The translations under genes were made by a program, and so were the position numbers. Positions 1 through 9,702 of a DNA stretch of 64,000 bases are shown in pieces. Position 1 is the first letter of the stretch. Every line of letters begins with the position of its first letter. The DNA is taken from the IMG/VR virus record IMGVR_UViG_3300028840_002623, positions 5,881 to 69,880 of that record. One strand, written 5' to 3'. The notes beneath the pieces are model-generated. The model had not been told where the DNA came from, ran no database searches, and saw nothing but the letters and a program-made list of their open reading frames with translations. Source of the DNA: a virus.

Positions 1-2
1 TG

Positions 3-155
3 GAAGCCCTGATTGATGATGCGAATAATGCATATGCGGAACAGGGTGGAAAAGACAACCACAAAGAAGCGGCATTCATTGTCCACCGGGTTGTTGACAT
101 CCTTGAGGATTTCGGAGTGCTGGAACGTAATGAGGATAAAATTAAAATCTCATAA
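3..155 (+). CDS. 3' end of a hypothetical gene truncated by the window edge
   Basis: Open frame EALIDDANNAY...KIKIS* ends in TAA 153-155, overlapping the next ATG (TAATG). Confidence 0.6.
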   Translation, partial: EALIDDANNAYAEQGGKDNHKEAAFIVHRVVDILEDFGVLERNEDKIKIS

Positions 156-1225
156 TGAAGCGTTATAAATCTGCAGTGGGCATTAGGGGTGATTGTCTCT
201 ATTGCCCACTGCCACTTTCTATAGATGGCTATTGGAATTGCGAACCCAATTGCCATCATTGTCCATTTCGGAGATTGAACCGGACATGGGGACAGGATTT
301 GAGACCTGCTGACCCGGATGCCATTGCCCGGAAGTTAGAAAATGGACTGAAGAATAACAACCCCAAATCCGGGCTTGCTTATGCCTTGAAATTAAAAAAG
401 ACAATTCGGATTGGAAGCCGTACTGACCCCTTCCAACCTGCAGAAATAAAACACGGAGTGGTAAAGGAAATAATCAGGACACTTATCAAGTTGGAATGGA
501 CCTTTGTAATCCAAACCCGGTTTTTGCATAACCTGATTGAATACAAACCGCTGTTAGAGAAAGCCCGGAAGAAAAACCTCATAACAATCCTGCCTATAAT
601 TTCCCCCGGCTTGGATTGGGATTTCTCCTTGCTGGAAAGAAAAACGACAACACCCATATCTGACCGGGGGAAAATCATCAAACAGTTATTGAAAAGAGAT
701 TTCCCGTTGGGGGTGAATGGAGAGCCATTCATACCCGGACACCATACAACGGAGATGTTCGCTGAAACAATAGATTGGTTGAAGAATATCGGAGTCAAGA
801 GTTACAACACCTACAACCTACACTTCAATGACGATGTCGCAAAGAAGATGCACGCCATTGGTTGCGATATAGAAAAGATTTGGGAAATGAATCAAGACCA
901 TCAATGGAGAATAATTCATCAACAACTTTGCCAGATTGCTCTTGAGAAGGGGATGAGGCTTGGTTGCCCGGATTTCGTCAATACGGGCTGGGGATGGAAA
1001 GAGAAAGCGAACACCTGTTGCGGAATAAATGTGCCCAACCCTTCCCGGTTCAACGCTCATAATTGGAAACACCTCATACAAAAAGGCTTGAGCCCGAAAG
1101 AAGCATATCAAAAAACTTGGGAAGGAATTGGCGACAGGGAGACAGCTCAAAAAATTCTCAGAGGTAACAAATGTGAATTCTATACCATAAAGGATATTGC
1201 AAATGAAAATCAAAGCCAAGAATAA
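155..1225 (+). CDS. Radical SAM protein (SPL-like), paralog 1
   Basis: CxxxCxxC (CEPNCHHC), RIGSRTDPFQP, extra Cys in GDCLYCP and NTCCG. Confidence 0.85.
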   Translation: MKRYKSAVGIRGDCLYCPLPLSIDGYWNCEPNCHHCPFRRLNRTWGQDLRPADPDAIARKLENGLKNNNPKSGLAYALKLKKTIRIGSRTDPFQPAEIKHGVVKEIIRTLIKLEWTFVIQTRFLHNLIEYKPLLEKARKKNLITILPIISPGLDWDFSLLERKTTTPISDRGKIIKQLLKRDFPLGVNGEPFIPGHHTTEMFAETIDWLKNIGVKSYNTYNLHFNDDVAKKMHAIGCDIEKIWEMNQDHQWRIIHQQLCQIALEKGMRLGCPDFVNTGWGWKEKANTCCGINVPNPSRFNAHNWKHLIQKGLSPKEAYQKTWEGIGDRETAQKILRGNKCEFYTIKDIANENQSQE

Positions 1226-1880
1226 CCGATTCAGTTTGGAACTAAAAATTCCAAGGAGTTGTGAGGCGACATATCCAAGTCTCAGAAAGTTAAAAAGAGG
1301 AAACACCCAAGAGTCAGAAGACAAGTTGAACGGGGTTTGGACCTTGTTAAAAGGATGTCAGGTGAAGGGAAAGCGATATCACGAACCTTTTGGGGGTATA
1401 GGTTTGAGTGCGCAGGTGGCTAATTCACTCAGTATGAGCGTTTCAGTCAATGAGTTGGACTCCGGGTTGTATTCTTTCCTCTGTGAGCAATACGATGAAG
1501 TAACAAATGAGGATGCGGACAAACTAATAATGGACCGGGTGCCATTCCGGTTTTTTGACCGCAACCATTTTACCTTCAACCATATTGGTCCGGCTTTCAA
1601 TGAAGCCCTTATCAAAACGACCAAGGTGCTCTTGTACACCGATGTGTTCCCATTTTCGCTGAAGCCATTTGATATGCTGAAACTAAAATTGTACTTGAAA
1701 AGATGTAAAGCCCGAATGGAAAAGGAAGGTTGGTATATACAAAAAGTTTTTCTGTATCGCAACCGCCACGTGATGATAGTAAAGATGACAAAAAATAAAA
1801 GTAAAAAACAGATAATAAAAGTAGAAACAGAACCGACAGACCCATTTGAAATGACAATTGATATAGGATTGTTCGGATGA
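1197..1880 (+). CDS. Putative SAM-dependent DNA methyltransferase-fold protein (Dam/D12-like, divergent)
   Basis: Motif I-like YHEPFGGIG and motif II-like VNELD; catalytic DPPY not canonical (FFDRNHF). Confidence 0.5.
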   Translation: MQMKIKAKNNRFSLELKIPRSCEATYPSLRKLKRGNTQESEDKLNGVWTLLKGCQVKGKRYHEPFGGIGLSAQVANSLSMSVSVNELDSGLYSFLCEQYDEVTNEDADKLIMDRVPFRFFDRNHFTFNHIGPAFNEALIKTTKVLLYTDVFPFSLKPFDMLKLKLYLKRCKARMEKEGWYIQKVFLYRNRHVMIVKMTKNKSKKQIIKVETEPTDPFEMTIDIGLFG

Positions 1881-3298
1881 ACTATTATGAACTCAGGGAT
1901 TTGATAACGGAAAAACTTGCTTACAGTTTTATGCCCAACAGACTGTACAAGGAAAAACGCCACCAGAGAGCGGTGGAAGAAAAAGGAAGAAAAACCGATT
2001 ATATGGAATACAAGTTGGACAGCCCCGGTGTGGCTGTTCCGCAGGAGCGGTTATTGAACACAGAGGAAATCAATTCATTTGTAGAGGTAAGTTGCCGTGC
2101 TGCAGCGTGCCCTATGCCGCTCAATATTGATACGTGGGATGGGTTGCTTTGCCCGTTCAATTGTTTGTATTGTTTTGCAAACGCTTTTCGGGCATCTCTA
2201 TACACCGCATTTTTTGATAACAGTAAAACAATGGGCTTCAGGCATTGCAATCCTTCCATGTACAAAAGGGAATTGGAAAAACTCTTCAAACTCCGGGGAA
2301 CAAATCCGCACGATGTCAAAGGAGATGTCGCCAAGGCTATTGCTTTGGAAATTCCTCTCAGGTTTGGAATCCGGTTTGAAGATTTTCTTGAAGAGGAAGG
2401 CAACGAAAAAATAGCGTTGGAACTGCTTCAGTATCTTTCTGAAGTAGAATACCCCACGATGATAAATTCAAAGTCAGCACTCTTGGGAAGGGATGACTAT
2501 TTGCGAGCACTGTCGGACAACCCGGCTGGAACGGCAGTTCACGTCACACTAATCTCCTCAAACAATGATGTACTACAATTATTGGAGCCGGGTGCACCTT
2601 CATATGAAGAAAGGCTTGAGGCAATTCGCAGTATGTCCCAAGCCGGAATCAAAGTTGTTGCCCGCATTGAACCATTCCTTCCCTTCATTTGCGACCAAAA
2701 GGATTATGTCCACCAATATATGTTAGAGGTTTGGGCTGCAGGTGTCCGCAGTATAACGTTTGACACCTACAGTTACACCGCTAAAAATCAAGGCATTCGC
2801 CAATCATTTATCAACAATGGATATGACTGGGATAGAATATTCCACATTGGATGCGAGAGTCAGGGCTTTGGTTCTATACTCTTGGGCAAGTTTATGGAGA
2901 TGTTCCGGGATTTTGGATTCAAGTGTTCCTCTTTTGATATGGGGAATGTCCCGGATAATGATGACGTCATTTGTTGTGAGGTTGGTGATGTGTTCAAAGA
3001 TTATGGCTTCAATTACGGCTGTACAGTTTATGCCGCACGAATGATTGCGAACCGGGGAAAGAAAGGCAAGACAACCTCTTGGAAGCATTTCAAAAAATGG
3101 GTTGACAAAAAAGGTGGCTTTCTTTCCAAGGCTCTTGAGAGTGAAGTACATATGCTTTGGAACTGTCGAGGGAATGACGCATATTCCCATTATTGGGCAA
3201 AAGGATTACAGCCAATGGGCTATGATGAATATGGAATTGTATGGGGGTCAAATCTTGAATATGATTTTAGGAAGGATTTATTGGAATGTCTAAAATAA
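1877..3298 (+). CDS. Radical SAM protein (SPL-like), paralog 2
   Basis: CPFNCLYC, VARIEPFLP, CPMPLNID and VICCE mirror paralog 1. Confidence 0.85.
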   Translation: MNYYELRDLITEKLAYSFMPNRLYKEKRHQRAVEEKGRKTDYMEYKLDSPGVAVPQERLLNTEEINSFVEVSCRAAACPMPLNIDTWDGLLCPFNCLYCFANAFRASLYTAFFDNSKTMGFRHCNPSMYKRELEKLFKLRGTNPHDVKGDVAKAIALEIPLRFGIRFEDFLEEEGNEKIALELLQYLSEVEYPTMINSKSALLGRDDYLRALSDNPAGTAVHVTLISSNNDVLQLLEPGAPSYEERLEAIRSMSQAGIKVVARIEPFLPFICDQKDYVHQYMLEVWAAGVRSITFDTYSYTAKNQGIRQSFINNGYDWDRIFHIGCESQGFGSILLGKFMEMFRDFGFKCSSFDMGNVPDNDDVICCEVGDVFKDYGFNYGCTVYAARMIANRGKKGKTTSWKHFKKWVDKKGGFLSKALESEVHMLWNCRGNDAYSHYWAKGLQPMGYDEYGIVWGSNLEYDFRKDLLECLK

Positions 3299-4089
3299 AT
3301 GACCGTATTGAAGCGATTTTCTCTCACGCAGTAGCACTACAGCAGGATGGGAGATTCAGGAACACTGTTCATTGTTCCGGGAAAATGATTCACATTATGA
3401 ATCAAGACGTGACTGTGATACTCCGGTTCCCAATAAGACAATACGAAACAGAGTTCAAACAACCAGTCAGTTTTTACGCCAACGACTATGACAGCAAACA
3501 GTTTGAAGAGCGTGACGGGAGAATTTGTTTCATCCAAGGGAATGAGGATTATGAACGCACCAAGAGTTGTAAAGTGCCCTCAACTCAAAACAAGAACCCG
3601 GAGAAAATCTGGAAGGGCATCAAGATGGAAAAAGATATCAATTGTGTTCAAATAAAATCATCCATCCTCAGCCTTCTTGAAGATGACCTGTCACATATTG
3701 AATTCAGTTGTACCGGGGGAAAGTTAAAAGTGGTTCAGCGGAATATCTTTTCAGGAGCGTTGATTGAGATAGAAAAGAAAGCCGCAAAAGGATTGCTTGC
3801 TGAGAAGGATTCAACCGGAGATTTCCCGGTGCTGGCGATGAGGACAAATGACTTTACAGCGTTGTTCTCTTTCGTGGATACAATCAAATTTTATTTCTCT
3901 GGTAATGGTTATATTTATTTCCAGAGCATTTCCAAAAAACTTAAAATGGATGGCATTGTCAGTCAATGTGTCTATGAAGAAATGAAAGGACAAGACGATG
4001 GGAGGAAAAAGCAGAAAGTCAGGAGGGGTGTCAAAGGCTCTGATAAACCGAATAAAGGGAAAAGGAAAATCAAAAGGAAAAAAGGATGA
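3286..4089 (+). CDS. Hypothetical protein, possibly sliding-clamp-like fold
   Basis: 267-aa ORF coupled to neighbours; helix/strand pattern loosely clamp-like; basic C-terminus. Confidence 0.45.
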   Translation: MSKINDRIEAIFSHAVALQQDGRFRNTVHCSGKMIHIMNQDVTVILRFPIRQYETEFKQPVSFYANDYDSKQFEERDGRICFIQGNEDYERTKSCKVPSTQNKNPEKIWKGIKMEKDINCVQIKSSILSLLEDDLSHIEFSCTGGKLKVVQRNIFSGALIEIEKKAAKGLLAEKDSTGDFPVLAMRTNDFTALFSFVDTIKFYFSGNGYIYFQSISKKLKMDGIVSQCVYEEMKGQDDGRKKQKVRRGVKGSDKPNKGKRKIKRKKG

Positions 4090-4841
4090 TAGCACTGTTG
4101 AACCCCGCAACCTATTTTCTGACACTGGTCCAACAAAGCGGAAAAAACCCAAACTTTTGGATGAGTGAAGAATATATTGAGTTGGCGCAATTGCGTTGGC
4201 TCAATTGTAACGGAATGTTACAAGGATTCAAAGATGAATTTGACAATTGGTTCTTTCCGTATTACAGTACATCTTCCAAACAATTTTATTCCTTCAACAA
4301 CGTGACCGGATTTCAGAATGAAGAGGTTGGTGAGTTTTGGGATTATGAATTCATCTATGACCCAAAAAACTTTTTGGACTTGTCCGGGGGAAAATGGAAA
4401 GTGTTCCGAAAGAATATCAGGAAGCACCAAGACAAGTCTTGGGAATATCGGAAATTGGAAGACAGCGATGTTGCTGATGCTGGTGCCTTGTTGTTAGATT
4501 GGTCTTGTGGTAAAACTTTATTTGACCCTGAAACCTTTGCCACATTCGTATTGTTCGGGGAAAATCGGTTTGGTTTATTCTTGGATGGAGAATTGAAAGG
4601 GGTGAACATAGCCGATACAAATTGGAAATACATCAACTACCGGATTTGTTTTGATTCCGGGGAATTGTACTTGAATGAATTTCTGCGTTGGAAATTTTAT
4701 ACATCTGAATGGGTTCAAGAGCAAAACAAACTTGTTAATGACGGTGGAAGTTTGGGCTCAGAAGGATTGTACAGGTTCAAGAAGAAATTAAACCCAGTTG
4801 ACATAAAAGGAATTTTTACAGGAGTTGGAAATGAAAGTTAA
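4086..4841 (+). CDS. DUF2156 / MprF C-terminal-like aminoacyl-tRNA-dependent transferase (GNAT fold)
   Basis: EFIYDPKNFLDLSGGKWKVFRKNI and NDGGSLGSEGLYRFKKKLNP fit DUF2156 consensus segments; no TM domain. Confidence 0.7.
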   Translation: MIALLNPATYFLTLVQQSGKNPNFWMSEEYIELAQLRWLNCNGMLQGFKDEFDNWFFPYYSTSSKQFYSFNNVTGFQNEEVGEFWDYEFIYDPKNFLDLSGGKWKVFRKNIRKHQDKSWEYRKLEDSDVADAGALLLDWSCGKTLFDPETFATFVLFGENRFGLFLDGELKGVNIADTNWKYINYRICFDSGELYLNEFLRWKFYTSEWVQEQNKLVNDGGSLGSEGLYRFKKKLNPVDIKGIFTGVGNES

Positions 4842-5832
4842 CAGACAGGATTTTTTAAAGGTACTGAACACTGTTATTTGCGGAGCACACCGACAGGAAG
4901 TATTGGAGCAATCCAACTGCTTCATTTTCCGGGAAGGGTTGGTGACATCCTTCAATGGTGAAATACTTGCCACCGCTGTACTGAAAGAGTCACCCGGAGA
5001 ATTTGCTGTCCCGGCTCACGACCTTATCAACCTGATTGCGAAATTTCCTGACGATGAAATAGAGTTAACAATCAAGGGGAATGAGTTGATGGTTGCAGGG
5101 AAGAAAAAAAGAGCCGGGCTGACTACCCAAAATGAAATACTCCTGCCCATTGAGGACATACCTGTTCCCAAGAAGTTTGGAAAGATAAAAGAAGGGGTGA
5201 TGGAAGCACTCTCAATGGCGGCAAAGGTTTGTTCATCGTCCAATGAGGATTATAGAGTGAGCCATGTACAGATTGCCCCGGACAAAATCCAAGCCACCGA
5301 CAAACTCAGATTTCTCCGGGTTACAATTGACACCGGGCTCAAAAAGATTCTTGTTCCTGCTGGACCGATAAATGCCGTGTCTGGTATCAATATCACTTCT
5401 GTTTCGCTTACAAAGGGATGGTTGTGGATTGGTAACAAGGAAGTCAAGTTGGGCATCTGTTGCACTGAAGAAGAATATTATGAGGATGCTCTTATTGACG
5501 GTGTAATAGATATGGACAAACCGAACATTGTACAACTCCCGGAAGAAATGGAAAAGGTTTTGGACCGGGCTTTGATTATGGCCAAGGATGATTGTACCCG
5601 GATGTCAAAAATAAAACTGTCAAAGAAATCCATTACAGTACGCACCCAAAAGGAATCCGGGTGGTATGAAGAGCGTCAACCCGTCAAGTACAAGGGGGAT
5701 GATATGGAATTGATGGTTGGGCTTTCGCTCTTCAAGGATTTGCTCAACAAGACAAATAAAGCGTATGTGTCGCAGGAAAAGATGAAGATGAAAAAAGACA
5801 ATGTTGAATTTCTTGTTTGTCTGGGAGAATAA
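4825..5832 (+). CDS. dnaN: DNA polymerase sliding clamp (beta subunit-like)
   Basis: 335 aa; MKVNRQDFLKVL start and IQATDKLR (beta-clamp ATDxxR); next to polymerase genes. Confidence 0.8.
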   Translation: MEMKVNRQDFLKVLNTVICGAHRQEVLEQSNCFIFREGLVTSFNGEILATAVLKESPGEFAVPAHDLINLIAKFPDDEIELTIKGNELMVAGKKKRAGLTTQNEILLPIEDIPVPKKFGKIKEGVMEALSMAAKVCSSSNEDYRVSHVQIAPDKIQATDKLRFLRVTIDTGLKKILVPAGPINAVSGINITSVSLTKGWLWIGNKEVKLGICCTEEEYYEDALIDGVIDMDKPNIVQLPEEMEKVLDRALIMAKDDCTRMSKIKLSKKSITVRTQKESGWYEERQPVKYKGDDMELMVGLSLFKDLLNKTNKAYVSQEKMKMKKDNVEFLVCLGE

Positions 5833-7019
5833 AAGTGCCGGGATTTTTTAAGGGTCAGACTACCAAAACCAAAACCCCGAAATTGCCTCAATGCGGTAAA
5901 TGTGGACTGTATAAGGATTGTATCAGTCCCAAGATGGAAGTCACGGGGGCTGGGAACCGCAAAGTGTTGTTTGTCGCTGAAGCCCCCGGTGAAGAGGAAG
6001 ACAGACAAGGAACGCAGTTGATTGGTCCGGCAGGGCAGTTGCTCCGGGATGCGTTGGAAGACATTGATGTTGAGATTGACGACTGTTACACGACCAATTC
6101 GGTTATTTGTCGTCCACATTCAAAAGTAGAACCATACATGATATCCTGTTGCAGACCAAATTTGCTCAAATCTATTTCACGTATAAAGCCGAATGTCATT
6201 GTGGTGATGGGCAAGAGTGCCTTGGAATCATTGATGTTCAAGGAGTGGAAAAGAGATTTGGGAACCATAAACCGATGGGTGGGTTGGACAATTCCTTCCG
6301 GGCAGTACAACGCTTGGCTGTGTCCAACTTTCCATCCTTCATACATTTTACGAATGAATGAAGACCAACAGTTGGTCAGGATTTTTAAAGAACACCTCAA
6401 ACGGGCTTTTCAATATGAACGGAAAAAAGTCACCAGCCATTCACTTGAGTCACTGAAAAGCAAAGTGGAAATTATTACAGACACCCGGAAGGGTGGTGAA
6501 CGAATGAAAGGGTTGCTCAAGAAGAAAGGGGTGTTGGCTTTTGATTATGAAACAACCGGGTTGAAGCCGGATACACCTGAACATAAAATTGTGTCTTGTT
6601 CTTTTTGCTTGAATGGAAAAGATACGTTTGCCACGATGATTGACGAAAGCAATATGAAAATGCTTTCCCGAATACTCCAGACACCCACGCTCAAAAAAGT
6701 TGCCTCCAATATTAAGTTTGAGGAACGCTGGTCACGTGCAATGTTTGGACACGGAGTGAGGGGGTGGGTATGGGATACCATGCTTGCCGCCCACTGTCTT
6801 GATAACAGGTCCAAAATAACTTCTATCAAATTCCAATCCTATGTACACTTGGGCATTCCAAGTTATGATTCAACCATTTACCCGTACCTGAAAAGCGGAA
6901 GTTCAAACGGCATTAATAGAATAGAACAAGCTGACAAGCACGAACTGCTAATGTATAATGGGTTGGACAGTCTGTTGGAATACCTTGTAGCGAAAAAGCA
7001 AAGGAAACAATTCAAATGA
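5817..7019 (+). CDS. Family-4 uracil-DNA glycosylase fused to PolA 3'-5' exonuclease (N-terminal part of split DNA polymerase)
   Basis: CGKC, VAEAPGEEED, NSVICRP, FHPSY (UDG4); FDYETTG, NIKFE, YNGLD (Exo I-III). Confidence 0.88.
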   Translation: MSGRIKVPGFFKGQTTKTKTPKLPQCGKCGLYKDCISPKMEVTGAGNRKVLFVAEAPGEEEDRQGTQLIGPAGQLLRDALEDIDVEIDDCYTTNSVICRPHSKVEPYMISCCRPNLLKSISRIKPNVIVVMGKSALESLMFKEWKRDLGTINRWVGWTIPSGQYNAWLCPTFHPSYILRMNEDQQLVRIFKEHLKRAFQYERKKVTSHSLESLKSKVEIITDTRKGGERMKGLLKKKGVLAFDYETTGLKPDTPEHKIVSCSFCLNGKDTFATMIDESNMKMLSRILQTPTLKKVASNIKFEERWSRAMFGHGVRGWVWDTMLAAHCLDNRSKITSIKFQSYVHLGIPSYDSTIYPYLKSGSSNGINRIEQADKHELLMYNGLDSLLEYLVAKKQRKQFK

Positions 7020-8407
7020 TACCATATAAAATGAAAGCGTATAAATTGCTTCATAACGGAGCAATTACACTTGCTGAAATTGAAGGCAACGGAATCAAAA
7101 TTGACTCCGGGTATTTGAAGAAAGCCCGTGGCCAAACGGAAAAGAAAATCAAACAGTTACAATCCGAATTGGAAAGTGGAGATGTCTCAAAGGTATGGAA
7201 GAAAGTTTTCAAGAGCAAAACCAACTTCAACTCCAACGACCAATTGGGAAAGGTACTGTTTGAGGAATTGGAGTTGACACCCCCGGCTCTAACACCAACC
7301 GGGAAATATAAAACTGATGAGAAATCTCTCATGACGGTTGAACATCCTTTTGTTGAGGCATATTTGCGTATTAAAAAACTCCAAAAGGCTCTGACAACAT
7401 ACCTCAAAGGAATTGAGAAGGAAGTTGTTGATGGGTTCCTGCATCCGTTTTTCAATCTGAATATTACCAAGACATTCCGCTCATCTTCTGACTCACCTAA
7501 TTTCCAGAACATCCCGGTGCGTGACAAGGAGTTGGGTGAACTAATTCGGAAAGCCTTCATTGCCCGGAAAGGGAACCACCTTGTTGAAATAGATTATTCG
7601 GGAATTGAGGTTTGCGTTGCCGCCTGTTACCACCACGACCCAAGAATGATTGAGTACATCAGTGACCCGGAAAAAGATATGCACCGGGATATGGCAGTGG
7701 AGTGTTACAAACTCAGACCAAACCAAGTGACAAAGGACATTCGCTTTTATGGTAAGAACTGCTTTGTGTTCCCTCAATTTTACGGAAGTGCGTATGTAGA
7801 CTGCGCCAAGAACCTTTGGGAAGCAATCGGCACTGCCAAACTCAAGACAGAAGGGGGAACACCGCTCAAACGTCATCTGAGGAAAAAAGGAATCAAAGAG
7901 TTGGGTGATTGTGATTGGGAAGAAAAGCCCCGGATTGGAACCTTTGAACGACACATTCAGCAGGTTGAGAAAAACTTTTGGGAAGAAAGATTCAAGGTGT
8001 ATGCCAATTGGAAAAAGAAATGGTACTATGAATACATTGACCGGGGCTGGATGCTGACCAAGACAGGATTTATTTGCCAAGGCTATATGAAGCGGAATGA
8101 AATAATAAATTACCCAGTGCAAGGCTCTGCGTTCCATTGCTTGCTCTGGTCCTTGATACGGCTCAACAAGGAGTTGAAAAAGAGAAAAATGAAAACACTT
8201 CTTGTGGGACAGATTCACGACTCAATATTGGCTGATGTTCCTGAAGAGGAATTGGATGAGTTTTTAATTCTGGCCAACAATGTAATGACAAAGCAACTGA
8301 TGAAGAGTTGGAAGTGGATAAATGTGCCGCTGGAAGTTGAAGCGGAAGTTTGCCCAATTGGAGGCAGTTGGTTTGATAAAAAGGAAATGGAGATACCAAA
8401 TGAATAG
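7016..8407 (+). CDS. polA: Family A DNA polymerase, polymerase domain
   Basis: SSDSPNFQNIP, motif A DYSGIE, motif B R..K..FYG, NYPVQG, motif C QIHDS. Confidence 0.95.
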   Translation: MIPYKMKAYKLLHNGAITLAEIEGNGIKIDSGYLKKARGQTEKKIKQLQSELESGDVSKVWKKVFKSKTNFNSNDQLGKVLFEELELTPPALTPTGKYKTDEKSLMTVEHPFVEAYLRIKKLQKALTTYLKGIEKEVVDGFLHPFFNLNITKTFRSSSDSPNFQNIPVRDKELGELIRKAFIARKGNHLVEIDYSGIEVCVAACYHHDPRMIEYISDPEKDMHRDMAVECYKLRPNQVTKDIRFYGKNCFVFPQFYGSAYVDCAKNLWEAIGTAKLKTEGGTPLKRHLRKKGIKELGDCDWEEKPRIGTFERHIQQVEKNFWEERFKVYANWKKKWYYEYIDRGWMLTKTGFICQGYMKRNEIINYPVQGSAFHCLLWSLIRLNKELKKRKMKTLLVGQIHDSILADVPEEELDEFLILANNVMTKQLMKSWKWINVPLEVEAEVCPIGGSWFDKKEMEIPNE

Positions 8408-8804
8408 AAAATTGGTTGCCAAGTCAATCTCCGGGGATGATGGGTTTGGGAATAAAATAATTTGCAACCCCCCGGAGTTCAGTGTCATCTTAAAACTCAA
8501 CACCGGGAAAAAACGAACAATTGGAAAGTTGGTCAAGTATTCTGACAAAGTTTATTTCGTTATCAAACGGGACAAGAGCAAACATCTGTTGAGGAAAGCG
8601 AACAGTTGGGGCTTGAATGATTCGGTTGTTCAGGCTCTGTCAGATGACTGTCATATAATCCTGAATGAAAAAGGTGGCTCAACCTATTACATCCCGGTCA
8701 AATCTGTAAAAGAAAATGGCTCATATCTCTGGTTCAAGAATCAGGGATTTGAAAGACAGATATTTGTTGAGTTGAAATATTGGAAAGAGGAATACAATGA
8801 CTGA
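8400..8804 (+). CDS. Hypothetical protein
   Basis: ATG 8400 after GGAG; overlaps flanking genes. Confidence 0.65.
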   Translation: MNRKLVAKSISGDDGFGNKIICNPPEFSVILKLNTGKKRTIGKLVKYSDKVYFVIKRDKSKHLLRKANSWGLNDSVVQALSDDCHIILNEKGGSTYYIPVKSVKENGSYLWFKNQGFERQIFVELKYWKEEYND

Positions 8805-9702
8805 ACTGTATAAAAAATACCGCCCAAAAAGTTTGAAGACTGTTATTGGAAATAAATCAACAATTGCGGCTCTAAAAAATATGCTTGACCGGGGAACATT
8901 GCCCCACACCATCTTGTTCCATGGACCATCGGGTTGCGGCAAGACAACGCTTGCCCGGATTTTAAAAACTGAGCTGGAGTGTAATGATTTAGATTTCGTG
9001 GAGTTGAACTGTTCTGACTTTCGTGGAATTGATACTGTCCGGGAAATAAGAAACACGATGCAGTTGGCTCCGGTTGCCGGGAAATGCAGAGTGTGGCTAA
9101 TGGATGAACTCCATATGATGACTACTGCAGGACAAAATGCGGCATTAAAAATCTTTGAAGACACTCCGGCTCATGTTTACTTTTTCCTGTGTACGACTGA
9201 CCCGCAAAAACTCCTGAAGACAATCCGAACAAGGTGTTGCGAAATGCCCGTGGAATACCTTGGTGAACCGGAGATGAAAAAACTCCTAATGAGAGTATGC
9301 AAGAGGGAAAAGTTGGACATAAACCGGGAATGCGCAGAACAGATATTTGATGTGTCTAACGGCTCAGCAAGGAAATGCCTGGTACTATTGGATAAAATAA
9401 GAAATGTCCCGGAGGCTGAGCGTATTCAAGCGATAACACAAGAGGAAGATGAACGGGAGGGAATAGATTTGTGCCGGGCTTTGATTAAAAGGGAAGGGTG
9501 GACAAAGATTGCAAAAATACTCCGGGAAATAAAAGGTGACCCGGAATCCATACGATGGGCGGTGTTGGGTTATTGTACAGCCATACTCACCAAGAAAGCG
9601 GATGACCACGTGTACCACGTACTGACTTGTTTTGAGAATCACTTTTATGATTCCAAAAAAGCCGGATTGGTTGGTGCTTGCTATGAAGCAATCAACGGCT
9701 AA
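8797..9702 (+). CDS. Clamp loader AAA+ subunit (DnaX/RFC-like)
   Basis: LYKKYRP, Walker A GPSGCGKT, Walker B LMDE, TIRTRC arginine finger. Confidence 0.92.
   Translation: MTELYKKYRPKSLKTVIGNKSTIAALKNMLDRGTLPHTILFHGPSGCGKTTLARILKTELECNDLDFVELNCSDFRGIDTVREIRNTMQLAPVAGKCRVWLMDELHMMTTAGQNAALKIFEDTPAHVYFFLCTTDPQKLLKTIRTRCCEMPVEYLGEPEMKKLLMRVCKREKLDINRECAEQIFDVSNGSARKCLVLLDKIRNVPEAERIQAITQEEDEREGIDLCRALIKREGWTKIAKILREIKGDPESIRWAVLGYCTAILTKKADDHVYHVLTCFENHFYDSKKAGLVGACYEAING

Follow-up and report, generated by a model that had tools for sequence, protein, structure and literature searches.

We analysed a 64,000-nucleotide stretch of viral DNA (the window), which comprises bases 5881-69880 of the 69,880-bp IMG/VR virus record IMGVR_UViG_3300028840_002623. 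The record carries direct terminal repeats (134 bp, exact) and its estimated completeness is 100%. Close to the start of the window lies a cassette of six genes, g1 to g5 and the peptide gene gP, which we consider here as a candidate system for the modification of DNA bases. It encodes two putative radical S-adenosylmethionine (SAM) enzymes, a methyltransferase-like protein, a protein with a predicted PCNA fold, a small peptide and a protein with a predicted DUF2156 fold (Table 1). Consecutive genes from g1 to g5 overlap by 4 to 29 nt each in the list of open reading frames (ORFs). The gP gene is read in another frame, and it overlaps the 3' end of g4 by 92 nt and the 5' end of g5 by 83 nt.

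Table 1. Genes of the cassette and the replication genes that follow it (positions in the window; aa, amino acids)
Feature	Position	Strand	Basis
g1, rSAM-A, putative radical SAM enzyme resembling spore photoproduct lyase (SPL-like), 356 aa	155-1225	+	ORF, below-cut-off PF04055, phrog_13321
g2, accessory protein with a putative class-I methyltransferase fold, 227 aa; start possibly ATG at 1203	1197-1880	+	atlas features
g3, rSAM-B, second putative SPL-like radical SAM enzyme, 473 aa	1877-3298	+	PF04055
g4, predicted two-domain PCNA-fold protein, folded core about 235 aa	3286-4089	+	AlphaFold2 (AF2)/Foldseek
gP, 56-aa peptide gene	3998-4168	+	ORF and codon-position entropy
g5, predicted soluble DUF2156/MprF-C/FemX-fold protein, 251 aa, tandem GNAT of aminoacyl-tRNA transferase type	4086-4841	+	fold comparison
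beta-type clamp, three-domain	4825-5832		phrog_947 E 1.3e-23
uracil-DNA glycosylase (UDG) family domain and 3'-5' exonuclease	5817-7019		
PolA	7016-8407		
clamp loader	8797-9702		sole clamp-loader gene recognised

A scan of IMG/VR with g3 yielded 45 related loci (numbered below with the prefix L), in which the presence of genes was determined by tblastn. We detected g3 in 45/45 loci, g1 in 40/45, g4 in 38/45 and g5 in 37/45. In all five loci without g1 the g3 gene lies at most 1.9 kb from the contig start, and the seven misses of g4 and the eight misses of g5 all fall at contig ends. All loci that extend as far as the g4-g5 junction contain the peptide gP. The core of the cassette consists of g1, g3, g4, gP and g5, which are syntenic in this phage clade wherever the contig reaches. 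The layout of g1 to g5 is not a matter of chance, because the order is kept in the 45 related loci. The original prediction, made from the sequence of the window, had described five overlapping genes directly upstream of a clamp and a polymerase, and both the ORFs and the conserved order bear it out. It had also proposed a survey of co-occurrence. Here g1, g3, g4 and g5 indeed travel together, whereas a homologue of g2 was found in only 2/45 loci (L001 and L041). With window positions 1-8500 as the query, megablast found nothing among GenBank phages. In tblastn against the same phages g1 and g5 had no match and g3 had two weak partial matches only, and therefore the cassette appears to have no cultured relative.

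Of the two radical SAM proteins, g3 matched PF04055 above the gathering cut-off (E = 1.2e-8; 35.8 bits, cut-off 29.5 bits), and both g1 and g3 matched phrog_13321. Among NCBIfam models, g1 gave a partial match to NF033668 of the PA0069 family (E = 1.5e-8; 34.1 bits, cut-offs in the 360/430 range) and g3 gave a partial match to NF038135 of the Rv2578c family (E = 4.1e-16; 58.9 bits). We built family alignments from the relatives (A4, 28 g1-type sequences; A3, 25 g3-type sequences), and comparison of A3 with A4 in hhalign identified the two families as paralogous (prob 97%, E = 8.6e-11, 275 columns). Both proteins carry a CP(L/M)PLxID motif ahead of the CxxxCxxC motif (CPLPLSID in g1, CPMPLNID in g3). 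The CxxxCxxC cysteines of g1 are C29/C33/C36; besides these, C17, C288 and C289 are invariant and C271 is near-invariant in the 28 sequences. In g3 they are C92/C96/C99, and C78, C124, C366 and C367 are invariant in the 25 sequences. An invariant CC pair near the C-terminus is common to both families. The extra cysteines of g1 could provide the site of a second Fe-S cluster. The claim of two radical SAM paralogs with additional cysteine motifs is upheld by these alignments.

The best-conserved protein of the module is g3. Outside near-copies its identity amounts to 55-64%, where PolA reaches 38-61% and the clamp 22-33%, and the mean column identity of its family is 67%. In five relatives g3 is broken at the CxxxCxxC motif (residues ~92-103) by inserts of 0.45-1.4 kb (L032:7026-8001, L033:6576-8001, L036:6806-8001, L038:8288-8742 and L039:6990-8001). 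The L033 insert contains HINT/intein domains, and that of L036 contains a homing-endonuclease ORF of the NUMOD3/DUF559 type.

The PA0069 and Rv2578c families, the best NCBIfam likeness of the two proteins, belong to the 'DNA repair photolyase' group, and a neighbour in the protein atlas also bears the name DNA repair photolyase. This would suit a repair function, in which SPL-like radical SAM enzymes fix UV photoproducts or other lesions with the help of a PCNA-like clamp, and the remaining genes are unrelated neighbours. The setting among replication and recombination genes is in line with such a function. Against it speaks the outcome of PDB searches with the profiles of g3 and g1, in which nothing matched at E <=0.1, SPL included. 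Further evidence on repair comes from the gene content of the relatives and is given below.

We know of only one radical SAM enzyme that has been shown to act in DNA hypermodification, namely gp53 of phage M6. We located it through the Fe-S motif quoted in PMC8989533. This paper describes gp53 as a radical SAM isomerase of N-alpha-GlyT on DNA with ~9 Fe, i.e. two clusters, which is in line with the extra invariant cysteines of g1 and g3. The g1 family aligned with gp53 over 256 columns (hhalign prob 96.2%, E = 2.1e-9), and the g3 family aligned with it at prob 78.6% (E = 1.7e-5). As judged by sequence, g1 is a homologue of gp53 (the nearest family), and isomerase activity is only predicted for it.

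We placed the radical SAM proteins in a FastTree phylogeny of 43 rows, comprising 12 randomly chosen sequences each of the g1, g3 and gp53-like groups, all five sequences classed as 'other' and, from the window, g1 and g3; the tree omits 60 of the 101 unique ORFs. Four clades (g1, g3, gp53-like and a fourth one) were obtained with support of 98-100. The window g1 stood on a branch of length 2.36 with less than half of the columns filled. Since this protein is 42-82% identical to its g1 homologues, we regard its placement as an alignment artefact. The fourth clade (support 98) comprises L075:14351-15820, L105:5374-6795 (minus strand), L123:14921-16306, L101:4026-5366 and L116:10803-12080. In L075 it occurs alongside g1 and g3, which makes three paralogues in one phage, and in L105 and L123 it occurs alongside a gp53-like radical SAM gene.

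The relatives of the window phage carry further homologues of the thymidine hypermodification enzymes, located in a variable slot between g1 and g3. A pyridoxal phosphate (PLP) enzyme family from this slot matched the M6 ORF just upstream of gp53 (hhalign prob 100%, E = 1.2e-55, 37% identity). This ORF is gp52, a PLP decarboxylase that yields 5-NedU (PMC8989533). A flavin adenine dinucleotide (FAD) oxidoreductase from the same slot matched 20 GenBank phage records, of which 17 are Pseudomonas phages and one each a Stenotrophomonas, a Rhizobium and an unnamed phage. One match was to the annotated FAD oxidoreductase of phage PaMx11 (E = 4e-22, 27% identity, 91% of the query), which we take to be gp47. 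PaMx11 gp47 is a flavin-dependent lyase acting on N-alpha-GlyT (PMC8989533).

In the characterised thymidine pathways 5-hydroxymethyldeoxyuridine (5-hmdU) is made first, it is then phosphorylated, and an amino acid displaces the phosphate group in the next step (PMC8989533). We searched for the enzymes that start these pathways in the genome of the window phage and in complete or near-complete relatives (in the sets of five genomes, 4/5 were at least 90% complete). Thymidylat_synt (PF00303), the family of the thymidylate synthase (TS)-like dUMP hydroxymethylase, was found in 0/6 genomes. ADDT (PF18724), the amino acid:DNA transferase, was found in 0/5 genomes, the 5-hmdU DNA kinase domains HMUDK_hel and HMUDK_HMUD1 (PF18723, PF18748) in 0/5 each, and Tet_JBP (PF12851) in 0/5. 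As controls, ADDT was detected in 4/4 M6-type records, and in M6 itself ADDT, both HMUDK domains and a TS-like enzyme are all encoded around gp52/gp53. Tblastn with M6 ORFs gave no match, which agrees with the absence of the starters and of a gp52 homologue. As far as its sequences tell, the module is outside the known thymidine hypermodification pathway, because the three defining enzymes were sought and not found, and it shares the back end of that pathway.

We further compared the gene neighbourhoods of gp52-like enzymes. Briefly, the best 80 of 242 relatives were taken, a sample that leans to the query's own clade, and the ORFs of these loci were searched with family HMMs and M6 proteins at E <=1e-5. 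There were 36/80 loci with g4 or g5 and 25/80 with an ADDT, HMUDK or TS-like gene, while both front ends together were observed in 0/80. In 6/80 loci there was a strong g1 and the contig ended before g4/g5. The remaining 13/80 had neither front end, and their nearby matches were only ParB-N, an epimerase, a radical SAM protein and a DNA methylase. A strong gp53-like radical SAM gene was present in 29/80 loci, 25 of them in the M6-type group and 0 in the g4/g5 group. The two front ends are mutually exclusive among these 80 loci.

In L088-L092, L115 and L127 the gp52-like gene has no radical SAM, g4/g5, ADDT, HMUDK or TS-like partner within 10 kb, and this setting may represent a third context for the enzyme. 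N6_N4-type DNA methylase ORFs occur there as well: in L090 the PLP gene is followed immediately by two of them, and L088 has a weak match ~0.65 kb upstream. The bait in a large metavirome survey was the 5-hmdU kinase (PMC8989533), and therefore clusters that lack the kinase, including the present module, would be missed by that survey.

The spacing between g1 and g3 ranges from -4 to 2730 nt in the relatives, and additional insertions occur between g3 and g4 and between g4 and g5. At 33 loci the slot was readable, and the inserted ORFs were assigned by Pfam. PALP-type (gp52-like) PLP enzymes were the most frequent (15/33 loci), followed by aldo-keto reductases (12/33), an unnamed family of ~250 aa (8/33), D12 DNA methyltransferases (7/33), FAD oxidoreductases (4/33), amidoligases (2/33) and N6_N4 methylases (2/33). 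A g2-like gene was found in 1/33 of these loci, in the window and in L041, which is among the other 12 loci. None of the listed families was present in 5/33. Thus, g2 is an accessory gene that occupies the variable tailoring slot, and it does not belong to the core.

We obtained no match of g2 in Pfam, NCBIfam or PHROG. In the protein atlas it showed N6_N4_Mtase-like features (0.90) and a template modelling (TM) score of 0.62-0.69 to class-I methyltransferases, which has the value of a lead only. The protein contains FGGIG, of the motif I pattern FxGxG, and where the DPPY-type motif IV would be expected it has TDVFP(F/Y) (TDVFPF in the window); these motifs are conserved in three sequences. 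The original prediction had placed a Dam-like fold lacking DPPY between the two radical SAM genes. The class-I methyltransferase fold and the TDVFPF motif agree with that description, at lead level, whereas the implied place in the cassette is that of an accessory gene (2/45 relatives).

Single loci contain other genes. Besides the L002:6523-7440 ORF for an Amidoligase_2 protein in the slot, we observed an RtcB RNA ligase between g3 and g4 (L026:9401-10579), a weak match to a TET-associated glycosyltransferase between g4 and g5 (L005:10148-10966) and, within the slot, a DenV-type pyrimidine dimer glycosylase (L042:6317-6757).

The DenV-type enzyme is a further point in favour of DNA repair. 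A repair function leaves unexplained the obligate presence of g5 and gP, the PLP, FAD, aldo-keto reductase and amidoligase genes of the slot, and the mutual exclusion of the present and the kinase/ADDT front ends. We therefore consider repair a very unlikely role of the cassette.

The AF2 model of g4 had a pLDDT of 82.9, with a basic tail below 65. In Foldseek every listed match was a PCNA (E ~1e-9, prob 1.0, TM 0.5-0.56). According to the model, g4 has a two-domain PCNA fold, and formation of a ring and its loading on DNA are only presumed. Sequence searches with g4 gave no match to any Pfam family at E <=0.1, those of PCNA and the beta clamp included, and its profile in the PDB hit only a chance-level stretch of Cas10. 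Against 1.84 billion representatives the profile stayed within its own family of 215 clusters and did not reach canonical clamps. Besides the predicted PCNA-fold protein, the phage encodes a beta-type clamp as a distinct protein, together with a clamp loader. In two runs, complex prediction of g5 with residues 1-235 of g4 scored 0.00; no controls were folded, and this result weighs neither way.

The N-terminus of gP is invariant (MGGKSRKSGGVSKALI). It is followed by a basic middle part and by the C-terminal hydrophobic-acidic motifs NLFSD and LLDE. We found the N-terminal motif in 38/46 sequences (45 loci and the window); L003 has a variant and seven contigs end earlier. Over the first 12 codons of 25 unique sequences, the first, second and third codon positions had entropies of 0.39, 0.26 and 1.37 bits, respectively, and Ser codons switched between AGY and TCN. 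These two observations indicate that selection acts on the gP frame. A conserved 'GRKEQKVRR' tail was considered as a feature of g4 and rejected, since it is the other reading frame of gP. The basic tail of g4 is therefore a shadow of the gP frame, which agrees with its low pLDDT. At the C-terminus gP usually has a hydrophobic pair and then acidic residues, a motif which we infer to be clamp-binding-like. Profile searches with gP found no match in Pfam or the PDB, and 260 proteins matched it in databases.

These properties raise the question whether gP is itself the substrate. In such a case, a RiPP-like or scaffold-peptide modification, g5 would transfer an amino acid from aminoacyl-tRNA to the peptide, the radical SAM and slot enzymes would remodel it into a clamp-docked replication or anti-defence factor, and the bases would stay unmodified. 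Maturation of small peptides is a common role of radical SAM enzymes. Selection on gP at the protein level is strong, the peptide always occurs with the other core genes, the sizes of the families match (gP 260 proteins, g5 283, g4 215 clusters), and FemX, Sbb17 and L/F-transferase, which are related to g5 in fold, use peptides or amines as acyl acceptors. Several observations do not fit. The slot enzymes and g1 are homologous to enzymes that work on amino acids borne by DNA (gp52, gp53 and the PaMx11 FAD oxidoreductase; PMC8989533), and the radical SAM proteins belong to the SPL-like, DNA-acting group. DNA methyltransferases recur in the cassette, with the D12 class in 7/33 loci. Moreover, the gp52-like gene switches cleanly between the present front end and the DNA-specific one with the kinase and ADDT. 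On balance, we regard a peptide substrate as unlikely.

The fold of g5 was assigned from several comparisons. The family profile matched the soluble DUF2156 structure 2hqy (E = 4.4e-4), a Bacteroides protein for which we know of no function. The AF2 model of g5 (pLDDT 90.4) matched 2hqy best in Foldseek (E = 2.4e-9), followed by MprF, FemX and Sbb17. Structural alignment with VIA gave Z = 20.4 to 2hqy with 241/251 residues aligned, as compared with Z = 13-15 for MprF/aaPGS domains, 11-12.6 for Sbb17/FemX and ~10 for ordinary single GNATs. The RxN and FKxKxxP-type motifs of g5 align with 2hqy. By its model g5 has the tandem-GNAT DUF2156 fold, and the use of an aminoacyl-tRNA donor is predicted. 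The soluble DUF2156-like protein named in the original prediction is thus confirmed at the level of the model. None of the 283 database relatives of g5 has a functional name, and some of them carry a precomputed PF09924 label. We looked for long fusion proteins that include g5 and found none, although this is a weak piece of evidence. The Mom protein of phage Mu had no detectable sequence relation to g5 (hhalign prob 2%). Mom is a GNAT enzyme that transfers glycine from Gly-tRNA onto adenine (N6) in double-stranded DNA after replication (PMC13219725). Modification of DNA that depends on tRNA therefore has a precedent, because Mom uses Gly-tRNA (PMC13219725).

Enzymes with the DUF2156 fold are also known to act on lipid or small-molecule acceptors (MprF, Sbb17), and thus the target might be neither DNA nor gP. 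It might be tRNA, the nucleotide pool or a host molecule, for instance in an anti-defence or takeover function within the early operon. The RtcB gene inside the cassette of L026 fits such a target, and the thymidine intermediates are described as DNA analogues of tRNA wobble modifications (PMC8989533). The dedicated PCNA-fold protein and the location between helicase and clamp speak against it. So do the homology to the DNA-acting gp52/gp53 and to the PaMx11 FAD oxidoreductase, and we found no tRNA genes in the 64-kb window. Such another target is the least probable of the readings that we considered.

Taken together, the cassette probably acts on DNA bases after replication, as a hypermodification module whose front end is new. 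The original prediction of a DNA modification derived from an amino acid gains support from the gp53, gp52 and PaMx11 homologies and from the Mom precedent, as far as homology can tell. As to the composition of the cassette, the joint occurrence of g1, g3 and g5 stands; the PCNA fold of g4 and the peptide gP had been overlooked, and the tailoring genes that tie the module to known pathways are absent from this phage.

In this module the core would attach a group of the alpha-amino-acid type to a DNA base. By analogy with M6 and PaMx11, the target would most likely be the C5-methyl group of thymine. The unmodified base would be activated by rSAM-B, which would replace the dUMP hydroxymethylase or TET/JBP. 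Then g5 would bring the amino acid from aminoacyl-tRNA and replace the 5-hmdU kinase and ADDT, in a step that would be chemically akin to the use of Gly-tRNA on DNA by Mom. The adduct would be rearranged by rSAM-A, as is done by M6 gp53. The PCNA-like ring would tether the enzymes to nascent DNA together with gP, whose C-terminal motif would dock it on a clamp. The slot enzymes would suit an amino-acid adduct: PLP-dependent decarboxylation, FAD-dependent amine oxidation followed by keto reduction by the aldo-keto reductase, amidation, and methylation. In the window phage g2 would methylate the adduct or the base, and the end product would be the core adduct, perhaps methylated.

A more specific version of this scheme can be proposed, in which an ordinary base of duplex DNA undergoes direct C-H functionalisation. 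Here rSAM-B would generate, on unmodified T, a thymine-methyl radical or an exocyclic methylene, and the amino acid that g5 takes from aminoacyl-tRNA would perhaps first be loaded on gP, a carrier that rides on the PCNA-like clamp. We consider this version quite doubtful. If this carrier and C-H functionalisation scheme were true, the module would represent a peptide-scaffolded DNA modification and a route without a modified nucleotide pool.

Several results weigh against base hypermodification. The first is the avoidance of restriction sites, which we counted in the whole genome (G000, the window and the preceding 5880 bases). GATC was observed 0 times as compared with 212 expected, CGCG 0 times (62 expected), CTAG 0 times (30 expected) and TCGA once (64 expected), while GGCC occurred 28 times (157 expected) and CCCGGG twice (67 expected). 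CCGG was present 492 times, mostly as CCSGG (362), and CCWGG only 16 times. The relatives avoid other sites, as L002 has 168 GATC and 0 CCGG, and L012 has 206 CCSGG. Avoidance this extreme suggests that restriction can reach the DNA at sites in which each of the four bases is represented, and it argues against a generally protective modification. The second concerns chemistry: to our knowledge, no enzyme functionalises an unmodified base as proposed here, and the first step is without precedent. Moreover, the combination of radical SAM proteins with a very small invariant peptide and a transferase of the tRNA type also fits a system that modifies peptides.

The remaining points concern the assignments. 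The match of g1 to PF04055 (16.9 bits) is below the 29.5-bit cut-off, and that of g5 to PF09924 (DUF2156/LPG_synthase_C; E = 8.6e-6, 25.5 bits) is under the cut-off of 27.5 bits. With 34-59 bits against cut-offs of 360-430, g1 and g3 fall outside the PA0069 and Rv2578c NCBIfam families. In the radical SAM tree g1 and gp53 stand in separate clades, with support of only 41 for the deep order, so that we speak of homology between them and not of orthology. The window phage has no gp52-like, FAD-oxidoreductase or aldo-keto reductase gene, so its link to the pathway comes from the relatives, and the functional links as a whole rest on homology and gene neighbourhood.

Upstream of the cassette there are genes for a sigma factor, an SNF2 helicase, a DnaG-type primase, a Lin1244-like protein and a DnaB-type helicase. 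Downstream, the genes listed in Table 1 are accompanied by those for a RecA/UvsX-like protein, a flap endonuclease and SbcCD. With these neighbours, the cassette lies inside the replication module. A 177-aa gene upstream of g1 was considered as a member of the core and rejected, because it is present in 5/45 loci only. A 160-aa ORF (8322-8804) overlaps the end of PolA; it had no Pfam match, and tblastn found relatives in 0/45 loci.

In summary, a clade of uncultured phages of ~60-75 kb appears to keep the back end of the known pathways and to swap all the starter enzymes. In their place it has two putative radical SAM enzymes, a dedicated clamp-like protein, an invariant peptide and a predicted tRNA-type transferase, and each core family comprises hundreds of database proteins. 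If our reading is true, the DNA would be modified by a new kind of chemistry, which might act on ordinary bases and need no oxygen. It would also be the second case after Mom, and an unrelated one, of charged tRNA feeding DNA modification, and it would provide a new enzyme set for writing groups onto DNA. We found no description of the module in the literature; the supplements of PMC8989533, which lay beyond our search, might show related clusters. On aminoacyl-tRNA in phage DNA hypermodification the literature search returned the Mom work only, and in the Mom paper (PMC13219725) the terms DUF2156 and radical SAM do not occur.

When compared with known systems, the two radical SAM proteins share the radical SAM core and the CxxxCxxC motif with SPL, PA0069 and Rv2578c (NCBIfam partial matches with E of 1e-8 to 4e-16). 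The NCBIfam model of the last is named 'intein-containing Rv2578c family radical SAM protein', and some relatives of the module also have an intein at the cluster motif. They differ from these proteins in their low scores, extra conserved cysteines and paired paralogues. With PCNA and phage sliding clamps, g4 has a predicted fold in common, whereas its sequence family is unmatched and the phage has another clamp, of the beta type, with a clamp loader. The predicted fold of g5 is common to DUF2156 proteins, MprF, aaPGS, FemX and Sbb17; g5 is shorter (251 aa), soluble, encoded by a phage and under the Pfam cut-off. Unlike Mom, g5 is of the tandem-GNAT DUF2156 type by its model, and while Mom acts alone, g5 always occurs with two radical SAM proteins, a clamp-like protein and a peptide. 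By these sequence comparisons, the module is outside the Mom family, the PA0069/Rv2578c equivalogs and any clamp sequence family.

The closest systems are those of thymidine hypermodification. The 5-AcNmdU pathway of the Pseudomonas phage PaMx11 consists of gp46 (ADDT), gp47 (flavin-dependent lyase) and gp48 (acetyltransferase). A homologue of its FAD oxidoreductase is present in 4/33 relatives, where it is paired with an aldo-keto reductase and not with an acetyltransferase; this gene is absent from the window, and the front end is different. The 5-NedU pathway of the Pseudomonas phage M6 (Yuavirus) consists of a dUMP hydroxymethylase, the 5-hmdU DNA kinase gp54, the ADDT gp51, gp53 and gp52. 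Here the module shares a gp53 homologue (g1), a gp52 homologue in 15/33 relatives, located in the g1-g3 slot where mapped, possible second-cluster cysteines (Fe in the case of gp53) and a gene cluster adjoining replication genes. Unlike M6, the module has no TS-like gene, kinase or ADDT, and the window phage has no gp52 homologue; in turn, the module adds a second radical SAM protein, a predicted PCNA-fold protein, an invariant peptide and a predicted DUF2156-fold enzyme.

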